NCBI RefSeq assembly: GCF_003018255.1
Contig: NZ_CP027440.1
Direction: 5' to 3' (one strand)
Length of the DNA stretch: 64,000 bases
From: Escherichia coli
GTDB lineage: Bacteria; Pseudomonadota; Gammaproteobacteria; Enterobacterales; Enterobacteriaceae
Part shown: one piece after another, positions 5,257 to 54,981 of the stretch
Layout: each line of letters starts with the position of its first letter
Position numbering within the stretch: the stretch's first letter is position 1
Made by a program: the position numbers and the translations under genes
The notes under the pieces: generated by a model
The model's database searches: none
What the model saw: the letters and a program-made list of their open reading frames with translations, nothing else
What the model was told of the DNA's origin: nothing

Positions 5257-6215
5257 AACAGCCGCTCCAGTGCATCAACGTCCACTAACGGCAGCAGGCT
5301 CCCCGGCCAGCGACGAACCTGCTGCGCCTGCATCAGATCCAGCGTGTCCAGTCCCGGAATGGTGTCTGGCGTTAACCAGGCAGCAATCCGCGCCAGTTGC
5401 GTTAGACCTAAGCTCGACTCAATGGAAGAACTGATCACCGCCGTCAGCCCCAGCGCATGCGCCGCCTGCACTTGCTCGCGTACTTTCTCCAGGCTGCCCG
5501 TGAGCGTGGGTTTGATAACTACCGCGCGCACGCCCTCTTCAGCCACAAAGGCAAAATCCGGCTCGCGCAGGCTTTCATCCCAGGCAATGGCAATGCCGGT
5601 TTCACGGGCAAACGCACGCGAATCATCGCGGGTTTTGCACGGCTCTTCGAGAAACGCGATGCGGTCGCGATAATCCGGGTTAACGTATTTGGCAAACTGC
5701 TGGCCTTTCAGCGGCGTCCAGGCGCGGTTCGCGTCAAGACGCAAATGCAGATCCGGAATTGCCTCCAGCAACAGATTGACCACCATGCCGTCGCGCACGG
5801 CTTCGTACAATCCCACTTTGACCTTCGCCACTTTCTCGCCCGGCATATCGGCAAGTTTCAGGATCAGATCGTCCGGATCGCCATTACACAGTGGTGCCGC
5901 ACGATAATTGGCCGCCTGCGGGAGCGTGTCTGCCAGCTCCGCCAATGCACAGCTTACGCCAAAGGCGACGGAAGGCATTTGCGGTAGCTCGCTATCACCT
6001 GCCAGCCAGTTATTTACCCAGGCAAGCAGCCCGCTTTGTGCCTCTTCCCAGGTTTCCTGGCTGAAGCCCGGTAGTGGGGAGATCTCCCCCCACCCTTCGC
6101 GCTCGCCCTCACGCAGGCAAACATACAGCCCGTCGCGGGTTTTTAACCGCCTGTCGCGCAGAACCACCCCCGCGTCCATGGGGATCTGCCAGCGGTATAC
6201 CTGCGCGCTACGCAT
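5253..6215 (-). CDS. menC: o-succinylbenzoate synthase
   Basis: 320-aa enolase-superfamily ORF; synteny in men operon. Confidence 0.9.
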
Positions 6216-24947: not shown

Positions 24948-26285
24948 TTACCAGCGCTCTTTCAGCAGGTTCGGCTGAATCCCATTAATCAAATGGGTAT
25001 TGCTGAACGGCTGTTTGATTCCCGCCTCAAATTCTTCGCGGAAATATTTGATGGCGCTCTGTAACGGCTCCACTGCACCAGGTGCGTGGGCACAGAAAGT
25101 TTTACCCGGGCCTAAGAATCGACACAGTTGCTCAAGTGTTTCGATATCGCCCGGCTGACCTTCGCCACGCTCCAGCGCACGCAGAATTTTCACGCTCCAC
25201 GGCAGACCGTCGCGGCACGGCGTACACCAGCCACAGGACTCACGGGCGAAAAACTCTTCCAGGTTACGCACCAGCGACACCATGTTGATCTCATGGTCAA
25301 CCGCCATCGCCAGCGCCGTACCCATACGGCTTCCCGCTTTACCGATACTTTCGAATTCCATCGGCAGATCAAGGTGCGCTTCGGTCAGGAAGTCGGTGCC
25401 AGCGCCGCCTGGCTGCCAGGCTTTGAATTTCAGACCGTCACGCATACCACCGGCGTAATCTTCGAGGATCTCGCGTGCGGTGGTGCCGAATGGCAGTTCC
25501 CACAGGCCCGGATTTTTCACCCGACCGGAGAAGCCCATCAGCTTGGTGCCAGCATCTTTACTTTTCGAGATGTTCTGATACCACTCCACGCCGTTAGCGA
25601 GGATCGCCGGAACGTTACACAGGGTTTCGACGTTATTGACACAGGTCGGTTTGCCCCATGCACCGGAGGTTGCCGGGAATGGAGGCTTCGAGCGAGGGTT
25701 AGCGCGACGCCCTTCCAGGGAGTTGATTAACGCTGTTTCTTCACCGCAGATGTAGCGCCCAGCCCCGGTATGGACGAACAATTCGAAGTCGAAACCTGTT
25801 CCCATAATGTTTTTGCCAAGCAGACCCACTTCGGTGGCTTCGGCAATGGCACGGCGCAGATTCACTGCCGCTTCGATATACTCGCCACGCAGGAAGATGT
25901 AGCCACGGTACGCTTTCAGCGCAAACGCGGAGATGAGCATACCTTCCACCAGCAGGTGCGGCAGTTGTTCCATCAGCAGGCGGTCTTTATAGGTGCCCGG
26001 CTCCATTTCATCGGCGTTACACAGCAGGTAACGGATGTTCATGGATTCGTCTTTCGGCATCAGGCTCCATTTCAGGCCGGTAGAAAAGCCCGCGCCGCCG
26101 CGCCCTTTCAGACCAGCGTCTTTTACCTGATTAACGATTTCGTCCGGAGACAGCCCGGTCAGCGCCTTACGCGCGCCTTCGTAACCGTTTTTGCTGCGAT
26201 ATTCGTCCAGCCACACTGGCTGTTTGTCATCGCGCAGACGCCAGGTCAGCGGATGCGTTTCGGGAGTACGGATAATGTTTTTCAT
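24948..26285 (-). CDS. nuoF: NADH-quinone oxidoreductase subunit F (FMN/NADH-binding)
   Basis: 445-aa ORF; overlaps nuoE stop. Confidence 0.95.
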
Positions 26286-34248: not shown

Positions 34249-36081
34249 TCAAAACGGAAACAGCATCGGGATCATCACCACACAAACCGCCATCACGATA
34301 ATGGTGAACGGTACCCCCAACTTCACAAAGTCACTGAAGCTGTAATTTCCCGGACCTAAAACCAGTGTGTTAACAGGTGAAGAAACCGGCGTCATAAAGG
34401 CGGCGGATGCTGCCATCGCCACGACCATCGCGAATGGGTAAGGCGACACCCCCATCGTTTTAGCAGCAGCCAGCGCAATCGGAGCCATCAACACCGCCGT
34501 CGCGGTATTAGAAATAAATAGCCCAATAACCGCCGACAAGACAAACAAACAACCCAGCATCATATGTGGCCCGTAACCGCCGCCAATGTCCATCAGCCCT
34601 TTCACCGCCAGCGCAACACCTCCCGTTTTCTGTAATGCCACAGCAAACGGCATCATCCCAACGATCAAAATAATGCTCGGCCAGTGTATGGATTTATAGG
34701 CGCTTTCAGCATCGATACAGCGGAATTTCCCCATCAGCAGGCAGGCGATGATAGCGGCAACAGGATTAGGAATTTCATCGGTCAGCATTAACGCCACCAT
34801 TAGCACCAGACAGAAAATGGCATGGGGTGCCTGACTGTGCGCGGGCGATGCTTCACTCACCTCTTCCGGTAAGTTCAGCGCTACGAAGTCGCGGCCCTGT
34901 TTGGCCAGCATACCGATCAGTTTCCAGTTACCCACAACCAGGATGATATCGCCCAGCAGCAGAGGCTCATCCGCCAGCGAACCTTCCAGCGCCACGCCAT
35001 TGCGCTTTAGCCCCACTACATTCAATCCGTAGCGGGTACGAAAACCAATTTCGCGCACCGATTTACCAATAAGTTCTGACTCAGGAATTAATGAAATCTC
35101 TGCCATGCCCACATCAAGGGCCTGGTCAGAAAAATACTCGCCGCGCAGTACCATCGGCTCCAGCAATTGCTCACTACAAAATTGCCGGAGATCGACATCA
35201 GCCGCAGACATATCAATAAGCAAAACGTCACGCGCGCGAAATTCAGAAACCCCATTAACGTTCACGATAACGCGACGAAAACGCCGCCAGCGTTCAACAC
35301 CGATGACGTTAGCACCATAACGTTCACGTAATTTGAGATCGTCCAGTCGTTGACCAATCATTGGCGATCCGGGGCGAATAGCCAGACGTCGCGCACGCCC
35401 GGTCAGTCGATATTCACGGATAAGATCGCGAAAGGTTCGGCGCGTCCAGCCTTCGCGTTGTGGGGTCTGGGTATCCCCTTTCAGCATGAAACGCATCACT
35501 AACATATACAAAATACCCAGCACCAGCACGACCAGGCCAATAGGTGTTACGCTAAAGAAACTGAAGCCGTGATAGCCTTCACGCAGCAATTCACTGTTGA
35601 CTACCAGGTTCGGCGGCGTCGCCACCAGCGTCATCATGCCGCTTATCAGCCCGGCAAAACTTAACGGCATCATCAGACGCGACGGCGACGTTTGCATACG
35701 CATGGCAACGCTTAACACCACGGGAATAAAGATAGCGACAACGCCGGTTGAACTCATAAACGCGCCAAGCCCCGCGACGGTCAGCATCAACAAAACCAAC
35801 ATTTTGATTTCACTGTTGCCCGCCACTTTGACCAGCCATGTCCCCATTACAGTGGCAACACCGGTACGGACCAAACCATCGCCAATAATGAACAAGGCGG
35901 CAATCAGGACAACGTTAGGATCGGAAAAGCCGGAAAATACTTCGGGGACCGTCAGCGTTCCGCTTAATGCAAACGCGACAATAACAAACAAAGCGACCGC
36001 ATCCATACGCACTCTGCCCGTCGCAAACAAGACGATGGCAACGGCCAGTAATGAAAGAACCCAAATCAATTCACCGTTCAC
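34249..36081 (-). CDS. yfbS: putative anion transporter with tandem TrkA-C (RCK_C) domains
   Basis: 610-aa polytopic ORF with central soluble region. Confidence 0.85.
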
Positions 36082-50747: not shown

Positions 50748-51530
50748 TTAACCACCATAAACATCAAAATCGAAGTACTTTTTCGCTAATTTCTCGTAAG
50801 TACCGTCAGCGCGCATTTCGGCAAAGGCTTTGTTCAGTGCCTCGCGCAGTTCGTTATCTTCTTTACGCAGGCCCATGCCGGTCCCTACGCCAAACAGTTT
50901 TTCATCTTTAACAGACGGACCACCGAATTTGTAATCTTTACCGACGGGTTGTTTGAGGAAACCTTCGCTGGCAGCGACCTCATCCTGGAACGCGGCATCA
51001 ATACGTCCGGCAGTCAGGTCAGAATAAATGTTGTCCTGCCCCTGATAAGAAACGATTTCAATGCCTTTTGGTGCCCAATGTTCGTTACCGAACGTCTCCT
51101 GGGTGGTGCCCTGCAATACGCCTACCCGTTTGCCTTTCAGCGACTCGACTGTCGGCTGAATGTCGGAATTTTTCGCCACCACCAGACGAGAATCGGCAGC
51201 GTACAGTTTGTCGGTGAAGGCAATTTCTTGCTGACGTTTTTCCGTAATGGAAAGCGATGACATGATGGCGTCAATCTTCTTCGCTTTTAAGGACGGGATT
51301 AACGCATCCAGTGGGTTTTCGACAAACGTACATTGCGTATTGATGCGTTTGCACAACTCCTTCGCCAGATCGATATCGAAGCCAACCAGTTCGCCTTGTG
51401 AATTTTTTGATTCAAATGGCGCATAGGTCGGATCGGTACCGATGCGGATGTTTTGCGGAATCGCAGCAAACGCAGCAGTTGCGCTGGAGAAGGCCAGAAC
51501 CAGAGAGAGCGATAGCACCAGTTTTTTCAT
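50748..51530 (-). CDS. hisJ: histidine-binding periplasmic protein
   Basis: 260-aa ORF with signal peptide; paralog of adjacent argT. Confidence 0.92.
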
Positions 51531-51665
51531 AATGTCCTCAACTGACAGTCTTTTTATAGGGAATATTTACAGGTTTGTTACACTTATCGTGCCATAAAAT
51601 TGACCATCAAGGCAAAATATCCCGCCCCGTTAGACGTATTATTTTTCATTAAAAATGCTTAAGTA

Positions 51666-51720
51666 TGCATTTCAATGCACCACGATAGTGCAACAAACCT
51701 GGCGTGCACCATGATGATCA
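51666..51720. promoter_or_regulatory. cluster of operator-like palindromes between argT and hisJ (NtrC- or ArgR-type candidates)
   Basis: TGCATT-TC-AATGCA perfect palindrome overlapping TGCACC-ACGAT-AGTGCA, then GTGCACCATGATGATCA. Confidence 0.35.
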
Positions 51721-51750
51721 TTCCATCAGGTACAGTTTCCCTGCGACGTA

Positions 51751-52533
51751 TCAGTCACCGTAGACATTAAAGTCGAAATACTTTTTCGCCATCTTGTCGT
51801 AGGTACCGTCCTGACGCAGCTCGCCAAGCGCCTTATTAAACGCCGCCGTCAGTTCAGCATCATCTTTACGTAGCCCTACACCGGTACCGTCACCGAAGTA
51901 TTTTTTGTCTTTCACTGATGAGCCAGCAAAAGCGAACTCTTTACCGGCTGGTTGCTTGAGGAATCCTTCACTGGCAGCAACTTCATCTTGTAACGCAGCA
52001 TCCAGACGTCCTGCAGCCAGATCGGAATAAACCAAATCCTGGTTGGCATAGGCCACCACATCCACGCCTTTGCTACGCCAGGTCTCGTTAGCGTATGCTT
52101 CCTGGGTTGATCCCTGCAGCACACCCACATGTTTACCTTTCAGTGAATCCAGCGTTGGCTGAATCGGTGAACCTTTGGCGGCAATCAAACGAGAATCTGC
52201 GGCGTACAACTTGTCGGAGAAAGCAATCTCCTGCTGACGTTTATCGGTAATGGAGAGCGACGAAATAATGGCGTCGATTTTTTTCGCTTTTAGTGAGGGG
52301 ATCAGCGCGTCAAAGTCACTGGCAACCCAGGTACATTTCACCTGCATCCGTTTGCACATCTCGTTACCGAGATCGATATCAAAGCCAACAAAGTCACCTT
52401 TGGCATCTTTCGATGAGAACGGCGCATAGGTGGTATCGGTTCCGATACGTACCGTCTCCGGTAGCGCCGCATAGCTGGAAGCCGCTGCGGAGAGACCGAC
52501 TAACAAAGACAGAGCGAGAATCGACTTCTTCAT
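51751..52533 (-). CDS. argT: lysine/arginine/ornithine-binding periplasmic protein
   Basis: 260-aa ORF with signal peptide; upstream paralog of hisJ. Confidence 0.92.
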
Positions 52534-52560
52534 ACATAACCCTCAAGTGAAAATGGCTTT

Positions 52561-52590
52561 TTTATGTTGTGTATTGTGTTGTGTGTTTGC
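52561..52590 (-). promoter_or_regulatory. C/A-rich element in argT 5' UTR (GcvB-sRNA target-type sequence)
   Basis: Minus-strand GCAAACACACAACACAATACACAACATAAA between the sigma54 promoter and the SD (GAGGG). Confidence 0.55.
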
Positions 52591-52601
52591 AGGCTCTTTC
52601 A

Positions 52602-52617
52602 TGCAGGTCTTATGCCA
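52602..52617 (-). promoter_or_regulatory. sigma54 (-24/-12) promoter of argT
   Basis: Minus-strand TGGCATAAGACCTGCA: GG and GC spaced as in the TGGCAC-N5-TTGCA consensus, about 70 bp upstream of argT ATG. Confidence 0.65.
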
Positions 52618-52798
52618 TCTTTACGACAACAGTAACATTCAACGTTAAATATGTTAATAAGACGTTGCATTATTGTCCTAAAGTTGAAGATAGCAGGTAT
52701 GGCGGTTGAATCGCAGCGTTTCGATTCATCGAAAGGAACAAAATGTCGAGGATTTGATCGCGGTTGCAAAATTGCCCTGAAACAGGGCAACAATGAGG

Positions 52799-53368
52799 TT
52801 ATGCGCCCTGCCAGCGGGCAAAGAGATCTTCAGGAAGGGTTATCGCAAACTGGTCAAGAACACGATTAACCGTCTGATTTATCACATCATCAAGGGATTG
52901 TGGGCGATGATAAAACGCCGGAACGGGAGGCATAATCACCGCACCGATTTCTGCCGCCTGAGTCATTAAACGCAGATGGCCTAAGTGCAGTGGCGTTTCA
53001 CGCACGCAGAGCACCAACGGGCGACGCTCTTTCAGCACCACATCTGCCGCACGGGTCAGTAAGCCATCAGTATAGCTATGGACAATGCCGGACAGGGTTT
53101 TGATTGAACAGGGTAAAATCACCATCCCCAACGTCTGGAAAGAACCGGAAGAAATGCTGGCAGCAATATCGCGCGCATCGTGTGTCACATCAGCTAACGC
53201 CTGCACTTCGCGCAGGGAAAAATCCGTTTCGAGGGATAAGGTCTGGCGCGCTGCCTGGCTCATTACCAGATGCGTTTCGATATCTGTGACATCGCGCAGA
53301 ACCTGTAATAAACGCACGCCATAAATCGCGCCGCTGGCACCGCTGATGCCTACAATGAGTCGTTTCAT
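52799..53368 (-). CDS. ubiX: flavin prenyltransferase UbiX
   Basis: 189-aa flavoprotein-fold ORF downstream of purF. Confidence 0.92.
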   Translation of the reverse strand: MKRLIVGISGASGAIYGVRLLQVLRDVTDIETHLVMSQAARQTLSLETDFSLREVQALADVTHDARDIAASISSGSFQTLGMVILPCSIKTLSGIVHSYTDGLLTRAADVVLKERRPLVLCVRETPLHLGHLRLMTQAAEIGAVIMPPVPAFYHRPQSLDDVINQTVNRVLDQFAITLPEDLFARWQGA

Positions 53369-53462: not shown

Positions 53463-54981
53463 TCATCCTTCGTTATGCATTTCGAGATTTTCCACTTCGT
53501 TCTGACGTTGCACTGCTTTGGCGTCGTCATTACGTAAAGTATCGAGGAAATCGAGGTAGCCCTGATCAACGTCTTTGGTGACGTAGACGCCGTTGAATAC
53601 CGAGCATTCAAACTGCTGGATATCCGGGTTTTCAGCGCGAACGGCTTCGATCAGATCGTTCAGATCCTGGAAAATCAACCCGTCAGCACCGATGATCTGG
53701 CGAATTTCATCTACTTCGCGACCGTGAGCGATCAGTTCCGTGGCGCTCGGCATATCGATACCGTAAACGTTCGGGAAGCGAATTTCCGGTGCCGCAGAAG
53801 CGAGGTACACTTTCTTCGCTCCGGCTTCGCGTGCCATCTCGATAATCTGCTCAGAAGTGGTGCCACGGACAATGGAGTCGTCGACCAGCAAGACGTTTTT
53901 ATCGCGGAACTCGGCGCGGTTGGCGTTCAGTTTACGGCGCACGGACTTACGACGCAGCTGCTGGCCCGGCATGATGAAGGTGCGGCCAACATAGCGGTTT
54001 TTAACGAAGCCCTGGCGGTACGGTTTGCCCAGAATACGAGCAATTTCCAGCGCGATATCACACGAGGTTTCCGGAATAGGGATCACCACGTCGATATCCA
54101 GATCTTCCCATTCGCGGGCAATTTTCTCGCCCAGTTTGGTGCCCATATTCACGCGCGCGCTGTAAACGGAAATTTTGTCGATGAACGAGTCCGGGCGGGC
54201 AAAGTATACATACTCAAACAGGCACGGATTGCTGACCGGATTGTCAGCACATTGACGGGTAAACAACTGCCCTTCTTCAGTGATGTAAATCGCTTCGCCC
54301 GGCGCGACGTCACGCAGGAAATCAAAGCCCAGCGTATCGAGCGCAACGCTTTCGGAAGCGACCATATATTCTGTACGGTTCTCGTCAATATCACGTTTTC
54401 CCAGTACCAACGGACGAATACCGTTTGGATCGCGGAAAGCAACCATACCGTGGCCGATGATCATCGCCACACAGGCATACGCGCCGCGGATTAAGCGGTT
54501 TGTAGCAGCGATGGCGGCGAAAATGTTGTCGGCTTCCAGCGGATAGTGGCGGAAGTTGTCCAGTTCGCTGGCAAAGATATTAAGCAGAATTTCCGAGTCG
54601 GAAGTGGTGTTGATGTGGCGGCGTTTTTCTTCAAACAGTTTTTTTACGCAACTCGTGAGCGTTGGTCAGATTGCCGTTGTGGGCAAGCGTAATGCCATAC
54701 GGGGAGTTAACGTAAAACGGCTGCGCTTCAGAGGCGCTGGAGCTGCCAGCCGTAGGGTAACGCACATGACCAATGCCCATATTGCCCTGCAAACGCTGCA
54801 TATGGCGAGCTTCAAATACATCGCTCACCAGCCCGTTCGCTTTACGCAAACGGAAGCAGTTATTGGCATCTATGGTGATGATGCCGGCGGCATCCTGACC
54901 GCGATGCTGAAGCACCGTTAAGGCATCATAAATCGACTGGTTAACCGGCATAACACCGGCGATACCGACAATACCGCACAT
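53463..54981 (-). pseudogene. purF: amidophosphoribosyltransferase PurF, reading frame broken by a +1 insertion in a homopolymer run (or sequencing error)
   Basis: N-terminal 116-aa ORF ([10 protein letters not shown]...ELRKKTV*) and C-terminal 335-aa ORF lie in different frames; coding strand reads CGT AAA AAA ACT GTT TGA at the junction. Confidence 0.8.

Follow-up and report, generated by a model that had tools for sequence, protein, structure and literature searches.

The argT control region of Escherichia coli: a sigma-54 promoter followed by a C/A-rich leader complementary to the small RNA GcvB

Gene context of the argT control region

The region lies in a window of 64 kb (the whole stretch of DNA that was analysed), which is a segment of the E. 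coli chromosome carrying purF-ubiX-argT-hisJQMP. When a 501-nt query spanning the region was compared with complete E. coli genomes, a match was found in 5425 of the 5426, always chromosomal and annotated as ubiX and argT. The open reading frames on the minus strand follow the order dedD, cvpA, purF, ubiX (53368..52799), argT (52533..51751), hisJ (51530..50748), hisQ, hisM and hisP. The RefSeq annotation of argT was taken from genomes that are 99.8% identical over the 501-nt control region, and RefSeq gives no annotated features in the ubiX-argT spacer. At the two ends of this spacer the following features were placed:

51751..52533, minus strand: argT coding sequence, 260 aa, lysine/arginine/ornithine periplasmic binding protein (ORF and RefSeq annotation)
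52768..52790, minus strand: ubiX intrinsic terminator hairpin, TTGCCCTG-TTT-CAGGGCAA followed by TTTT (read from the sequence)

The hairpin begins 9 nt past the ubiX stop codon (52801..52799) and bounds the argT control region on its upstream side. It was left unflagged by a terminator consensus scan because its T-run has only four T. At Rfam gathering thresholds no match was obtained in the argT region, the sole match of the window being a nuoG cis-regulatory RNA (RF01748, 50.3 bits, 24903..24945, minus strand).

In purF (minus strand), a run of seven A (CGTAAAAAAACTG) was observed at 54636..54642, whereas the 5425 E. coli genomes that match all have six A; the best matches agreed at 200 of 201 positions, with one gap. 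The extra A splits purF into ORFs 54981..54631 and 54470..53463, and either the frameshift is genuine, which would leave the strain auxotrophic for purines, or the extra A is a sequencing error in the homopolymer. The 3' part of argT (51931..52030) showed 14 substitutions within 100 bp when compared with the otherwise near-identical genome NZ_AP025214. Gene conversion from hisJ was considered as the source of this cluster and rejected, hisJ being matched by the window allele at 8 sites, by the other allele at 5 and by neither of them at 6. Given that conversion from hisJ fails to explain the substitutions, the cluster is probably an allelic recombination tract.

The sigma-54 promoter and its surroundings

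Between the ubiX hairpin and the argT leader, the features listed below were identified on the argT strand.

52602..52617, minus strand: sigma-54 (RpoN) core promoter argTp, TGGCAT (-24 element), AAGAC, CTGCA (-12 element)
52591 (+/-1 nt), minus strand: predicted transcription start, 12 nt after the -12 GC (from sigma-54 promoter geometry)
52652..52657, minus strand: TTAACA in an AT-rich block, -66..-61 from the predicted start (from alignment)
52687..52696, minus strand: upstream block CTGCTATCTT, -105..-96 from the predicted start (from alignment)

The promoter sequence TGGCATAAGACCTGCA runs from 52617 to 52602, with the GG at 52616-52615 and the GC at 52604-52603, which is the canonical sigma-54 spacing (10 nt between). 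The original prediction had read 52602..52617 as fitting the -24 GG / -12 GC geometry of sigma-54, and its strings and coordinates were right and the GG/GC spacing exact. Compared with the consensus TGGCAC-N5-TTGCW, 9 of 11 positions agree, GG and GC being in register, and the motif is followed on the same strand, at a distance of 69 nt, by the argT ATG.

The bare sigma-54 pattern alone is not diagnostic. The number of GG-N10-GC occurrences in the window was 720 (680 expected), and TGGCAY-N6-TGCW was observed 5 times against 1.05 expected, a count that was reached by 2 of 100 shuffles. The other four TGGCAY-N6-TGCW matches were discarded, all of them being located within ORFs, and their K-12 coordinates, which are approximate because the coordinate conversion is approximate, are absent from the main text of the sigma-54 ChIP-seq paper. 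Among the 14 sigma-54-like matches in the window, argTp was the sole one that is truly intergenic and closely precedes a gene of the same strand. A sigma-70 consensus scan of 51400..53000 returned no promoters on the argT strand.

Orthologous loci were retrieved using a degenerate pattern made from the ArgT-specific peptide GTDTTYAPF, so that the upstream DNA was unconstrained. TGGCAY-N6-TGCA was found 71-90 nt before the ATG in every one of the enterobacterial argT loci (46/46), which represent at least nine genera and include Escherichia, Salmonella, Citrobacter, Pseudocitrobacter, Kluyvera, Buttiauxella, Cedecea and others. In an alignment of 19 sequences from 9 genera, TGGCA and TGCA were invariant and the spacer and flanks drifted. 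Fixed -24 and -12 elements separated by a drifting spacer are the pattern expected of a functional sigma-54 core.

Published data place sigma-54 at this sequence in vivo. In E. coli K-12, the intergenic ChIP-seq site OS22 has an identical 17-mer (ATGGCATAAGACCTGCA) and was assigned to argT with a distance of 58; the table of that study codes argT as 'P', meaning that the promoter was predicted in EcoCyc and unconfirmed experimentally before then (PMC4591121). The argT (STM2355) site of Salmonella LT2 has an identical 18-mer, gave a ChIP-chip signal and was associated with a 3.5-fold wild type/rpoN expression ratio (PMC3844500). In addition, an in-vitro RpoN gSELEX screen gave a peak in the argT/ubiX spacer, NtrC ChIP-seq gave a weak peak at argT (score 5.4, starred) and one paper puts argT under a sigma-54/NtrC promoter. 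Sigma-54 occupancy and the dependence on NtrC and RpoN are established in this literature. The OS22 site, the rpoN dependence in Salmonella, the gSELEX peak and the conservation in 46/46 loci all agree with the earlier claim that argT is an Ntr-regulated sigma-54 gene. Control by ArgR was also considered and set aside, argT being called apparently not ArgR-regulated in the literature, unlike hisJQMP.

In a metabolic-engineering study, 'argTp' was the strongest of 12 sigma-54 promoter parts. The reporter fragment, as placed by the primers given there (including argTp-F), is 198 bp long and corresponds to 52789..52592 of the window; on this placement it runs from the ubiX terminator hairpin to the base preceding the predicted start. 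The predicted start at 52591 agrees both with the published 58-nt distance and with the 3' end of this fragment (52592), and we infer from the promoter geometry that argT transcription starts there, to within 1 nt.

Further upstream, nine of the ten columns of the CTGCTATCTT block were invariant in the alignment of 19 sequences from 9 genera and the tenth was at least 80% conserved, with diverging flanks, which makes the block a candidate activator or architectural site. For TTAACA, the last five positions (TAACA) were invariant in the same alignment and the first T was conserved in at least 80% of the sequences, the surroundings again being divergent; as a candidate, this hexamer may be a site of the DNA-bending/IHF type or a -35-like element of a sigma-70 promoter. 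An NtrC-type palindrome search gave none at either of these two blocks.

More generally, no palindrome with at least 9/10 matches to TGCAC-N7-GTGCA was found upstream of argTp, and the sole 8/10 match there is the ubiX terminator hairpin. A perfect palindrome is located in the argT-hisJ spacer:

51676..51692, no strand: perfect NtrC-type palindrome TGCAC-N7-GTGCA, the sole one in 64 kb, 58 nt after the argT stop

This palindrome is about 900 bp downstream of argTp and, after coordinate conversion, coincides with a strong NtrC ChIP-seq peak that has been labelled hisJQMP. About 85 bp downstream of it, and 64 nt before the hisJ ATG, is a sigma-54-like motif (TGGCACGATAAGTGTA, 51594..51579), the -12 element of which has GT for GC in every Escherichia locus (GTGTA), whereas Citrobacter, Kluyvera and Pseudocitrobacter have CTGCA or CTGCT there. 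For hisJ, no entry is given in the main text of the E. coli sigma-54 ChIP-seq paper. With the -12 GC lost from the hisJ-proximal motif that it would normally serve, the palindrome might in Escherichia act on argTp, in whole or in part, as a natural enhancer from about 900 bp downstream; this would account for the lack of a visible NtrC palindrome upstream and for the weak NtrC ChIP signal at argTp. We consider such a role improbable. Since the 198-bp argTp fragment, which contains upstream DNA only, is very active on a plasmid, the downstream site would be at most auxiliary and not required.

The C/A-rich leader and its pairing with GcvB

The leader between the predicted start and the argT coding sequence was divided into three features.

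52565..52591, minus strand: C/A-rich GcvB R1 target UGCAAACACACAACACAAUACACAACA, leader nt 1-27, -58..-32 from the AUG
52545..52564, minus strand: A-rich linker UAAAAAAGCCAUUUUCACUU, 20 nt between the GcvB site and the Shine-Dalgarno sequence (SD), variable among genera
52540..52544, minus strand: SD GAGGG, 6 nt before the AUG, -11..-7

After argTp the order is CATGAAAGAGCC, UGCAAACACACAACACAAUACACAACAUAAAAAAGCC, a short linker, GAGGG (52544..52540), six nucleotides and the AUG at 52533; the stretch ACACACAACACAATACACAACATAAAA is found within 52587..52558 on the argT strand. The C/A tract (52565..52591) has 8 overlapping ACA triplets, and the 35 nt from 52592 to 52558 are composed of A21 C10 T3 G1 (A or C at 31/35 positions). 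When both strands of the 64 kb were searched, 35-nt segments with at least 32 A+C were found only at the argT leader, and the tract is clearly well beyond chance. The leader had been described in the original prediction as roughly 55 nt long and C/A-rich, with a GAGGG SD; the C/A richness and the SD were correct, whereas the length, counted from the predicted start, is 58 nt. The mean unpaired probability of leader nt 1-27 was 0.89, and the tract is left unpaired in the minimum free energy (MFE) structure. The core of the SD (GAGG/AGGG) is kept across genera in the alignment. The linker has U4 in this lineage and U3 in other E. coli, and an assembly error was ruled out as the source of the extra U, the nearest complete genome having U4 as well.

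An out-of-frame AUG (AUGUAUG) is present 4 nt upstream of the argT start (52534..52537) and opens an overlapping frame of 50 codons; it was found in Escherichia, Salmonella, most Citrobacter and some other genera, though not in all. In E. albertii, 12 nt of the C/A tract are missing (compared with 52565..52580 of the window) and the leader is 45 nt long, and the length of the tract differs among other genera too. Judging from the aligned leaders, this length variation suggests change by slippage, and tract length may tune the sensitivity to GcvB.

The complementarity to GcvB was calculated with the K-12 GcvB sequence, gcvB being located outside the window; of 5425 E. coli records, taken one per genome, 5389 have GcvB at an identity of at least 99%. 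The R1 seed (nt 63-92, of which nt 64-91 are paired) forms a 26-bp duplex with leader nt 1-27 (52591..52565), with an energy of -36.8 to -37.0 kcal/mol. In 1000 dinucleotide shuffles of the leader this energy was never attained (mean -20.1, z = -5.9). Nor was -36.8 attained when the 27-nt core was shuffled 2000 times with its C/A composition kept (mean -14.6, best -29.8), so the match is sequence-specific and goes beyond composition. Pairing of the leader with R1 had been put forward as a check on the original prediction, and the -36.8 kcal/mol duplex lies far beyond the shuffled controls. A duplex of full-length GcvB with the leader (-77.9 kcal/mol, end-to-end) was unrealistic and was replaced by the R1-restricted calculation.

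When overlapping tiles from both strands of the window were ranked for R1 pairing, the argT leader site came first of 6392. The runner-up (35967..35999, plus strand, -34.9 kcal/mol) is antisense within a 610-aa ORF and was treated as chance, and the R1-pairing sites at 25201..25233 and 5333..5304 were dismissed as G/C-rich and not of the C/A type.

Among the orthologous leaders, of which 33 are distinct, an R1-complementary tract was present within about 3 nt of the predicted +1 in all (33/33), despite indels. The R1 pairing energies ranged from -25.5 to -36.8 kcal/mol, as compared to shuffle means of about -17 to -21, and for 24 of the 33 none of 300 shuffles reached the observed energy; the E. 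coli R1 sequence was used in these calculations for all genera, not the gcvB of each genus. The promoter motif with its conservation, the complementarity, its specificity, the predicted accessibility of the tract and its conservation were all obtained from the sequences analysed here.

An interaction between GcvB and argT has been documented in vivo. In a 2021 study of the GcvB regulon, argT is listed first among the targets of the ABC-transporter group, with R1 as the seed, and chimeras of argT and GcvB were recovered in E. coli by RIL-seq (5,814 / 2,754 / 40,963 / 129), with values of 205 for CLASH and 64.2 for MAPS; the regulon table gives argT as 'Conserved' for E. coli and as 'Verified' for Salmonella (PMC9299463). 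The interaction is treated as verified in an IntaRNA benchmark (citing Sharma et al. 2007), the argT site has been noted as lying upstream from the ribosome-binding site (RBS), like those of gltI and livJ, and the GcvB-argT interface was localised in E. coli by proximity ligation (TRIC-seq) in a 2025 preprint. ACA/CA-rich GcvB sites have been described as translation enhancers that lack a strict spacing to the SD and are silenced by GcvB (PMC3879156). Both the in-vivo interaction between GcvB and argT and the repression in Salmonella are established by this published work. The R1 duplex computed here and the publication of argT as an R1 target support the predicted GcvB site in the C/A-rich leader.

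Two layers of argT control and known systems

Taken together, these findings make it very probable that this is the two-layer control region already known for argT, consisting of a sigma-54/NtrC promoter and a C/A-rich leader that is targeted by GcvB. Sigma-54 RNA polymerase would bind TGGCAT-N5-CTGCA (52617..52602) as a closed complex, and only its remodelling by phosphorylated NtrC, made under nitrogen limitation, would allow transcription from about 52591. The first 27 nt of the resulting leader, predicted to be unstructured and showing near-perfect complementarity to R1, the GU-rich seed of the Hfq-dependent sRNA GcvB, would pair with GcvB when amino acids and peptides are plentiful, and less ArgT would then be synthesized. 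GcvB and Hfq may do this by masking the 5'-terminal ACA enhancer and/or through Hfq/RNase E-mediated decay. Since the duplex (-58..-32) stops 20 nt before the SD, the mechanism at argT is most likely enhancer silencing and/or decay and not occlusion of the SD, the enhancer-silencing step at argT specifically being one that we infer. In the Ntr and GcvB regulons, NtrC and sigma-54 are on when nitrogen is scarce and GcvB is made in rich medium. The net result would be a transporter that is made in nitrogen scarcity and held down in amino-acid abundance.

One alternative is that the C/A tract is solely a cis-acting translation enhancer (ACA, 30S recruitment) and that the complementarity to GcvB has no regulatory effect in E. 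coli. ACA/CA-rich tracts boost translation alone and at variable distances from the SD, the argT tract carries 8 overlapping ACA triplets, and the E. coli entry for argT in the regulon table is 'Conserved', reporter-level verification in this species not having been found. However, the duplex energy of the tract was not matched by composition-preserving shuffles (0/2000, best -29.8 compared with -36.8), GcvB-argT chimeras number in the thousands in E. coli and come from several independent methods, and repression was verified in Salmonella, where the duplex is shorter. Moreover, an enhancer role and a GcvB role are compatible, the published model being that GcvB silences the enhancer. We therefore regard an enhancer that acts alone as very unlikely.

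Even smaller is the probability that the sigma-54 motif is a chance match and that argT transcription really depends on a sigma-70 promoter within that spacer. The count of the bare motif in the window (5) exceeds expectation, though most of the copies are inside genes, the near-invariant TTAACA upstream could be a -35 element, and the accessible part of the argTp reporter study gives no rpoN dependence for its fragment. These points are outweighed by the in-vivo sigma-54 occupancy of this exact sequence, the RpoN gSELEX peak and rpoN-dependent expression in Salmonella, and by -24 and -12 elements that are invariant over at least nine genera while the spacer between them drifts; the consensus scan gave no sigma-70 promoter on the argT strand and the literature gives sigma-54/NtrC control. 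A minor additional sigma-70 start at argT may exist. Least credible of all is the idea that the C/A tract is a slippage-prone simple repeat without selected function, which would fit the variation in tract length among genera and the 12 nt missing in E. albertii but hardly the presence of an R1-complementary C/A tract at the same place, in the first transcript nucleotides, in 33/33 distinct leaders, the pairing energies unreached by 300 shuffles in 24 of these 33, or the fact that this is the most C/A-dense tract in 64 kb.

The sigma-54/NtrC promoter with a GcvB-targeted leader consequently remains the reading that we prefer, and the duplex, the accessibility, the orthologous leaders and the published GcvB data all support the view, expressed in the original prediction, that the leader is likely a post-transcriptional control element. 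Both layers of argT control have already been published and the locus holds no new biology. It shows argT as a textbook transporter gene that is gated twice, by nitrogen starvation at transcription and by amino-acid abundance at the mRNA, and since both layers were read correctly from the sequence alone, the locus can serve as a positive control for a scan.

Compared with promoters of the glnAp2 / glnHp2 type, argTp has in common the -24/-12 core, an NtrC ChIP signal and membership of the Ntr regulon. In the glnAp2 / glnHp2 type, clear NtrC palindromes are found 100-140 bp upstream, whereas argTp has none there with at least 9/10 matches. The closest system is the published argTp (argTr) of E. 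coli K-12 and S. Typhimurium LT2 itself: the core sequence is identical here, the promoter likewise lies between the ubiX terminator and argT, and the leader is 58 nt in both. The present lineage differs by the extra U in the leader linker (U4 compared with U3), which is outside both elements, and by nothing of substance.

For the leader, the yifK and dppA ACA enhancers that are silenced by GcvB (Yang, Figueroa-Bossi and Bossi 2014, PMC3879156) have clustered ACA triplets inside the GcvB target, as does argT. The argT tract differs from them in its location at the very 5' terminus of the mRNA, with 20 nt between it and the SD, and its enhancer activity is presumed. In its position (-58..-32, upstream of the RBS and not over the SD) the argT site is like those of gltI and livJ. 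The 26-bp duplex of E. coli (-36.8 kcal/mol) is longer than that of Salmonella subspecies (-26.7 to -28.0 kcal/mol) or of E. albertii (-27.5 kcal/mol). As in the GcvB R1 targets dppA, oppA, gltI, livJ, livK and STM4351 (Sharma et al. 2007, as cited), the 5' UTR of a gene for a periplasmic binding protein carries a single-stranded tract that is rich in C and A and poor in G, and argT is a founding member of this set of ABC-transporter targets (Sharma et al. 2007, as cited).
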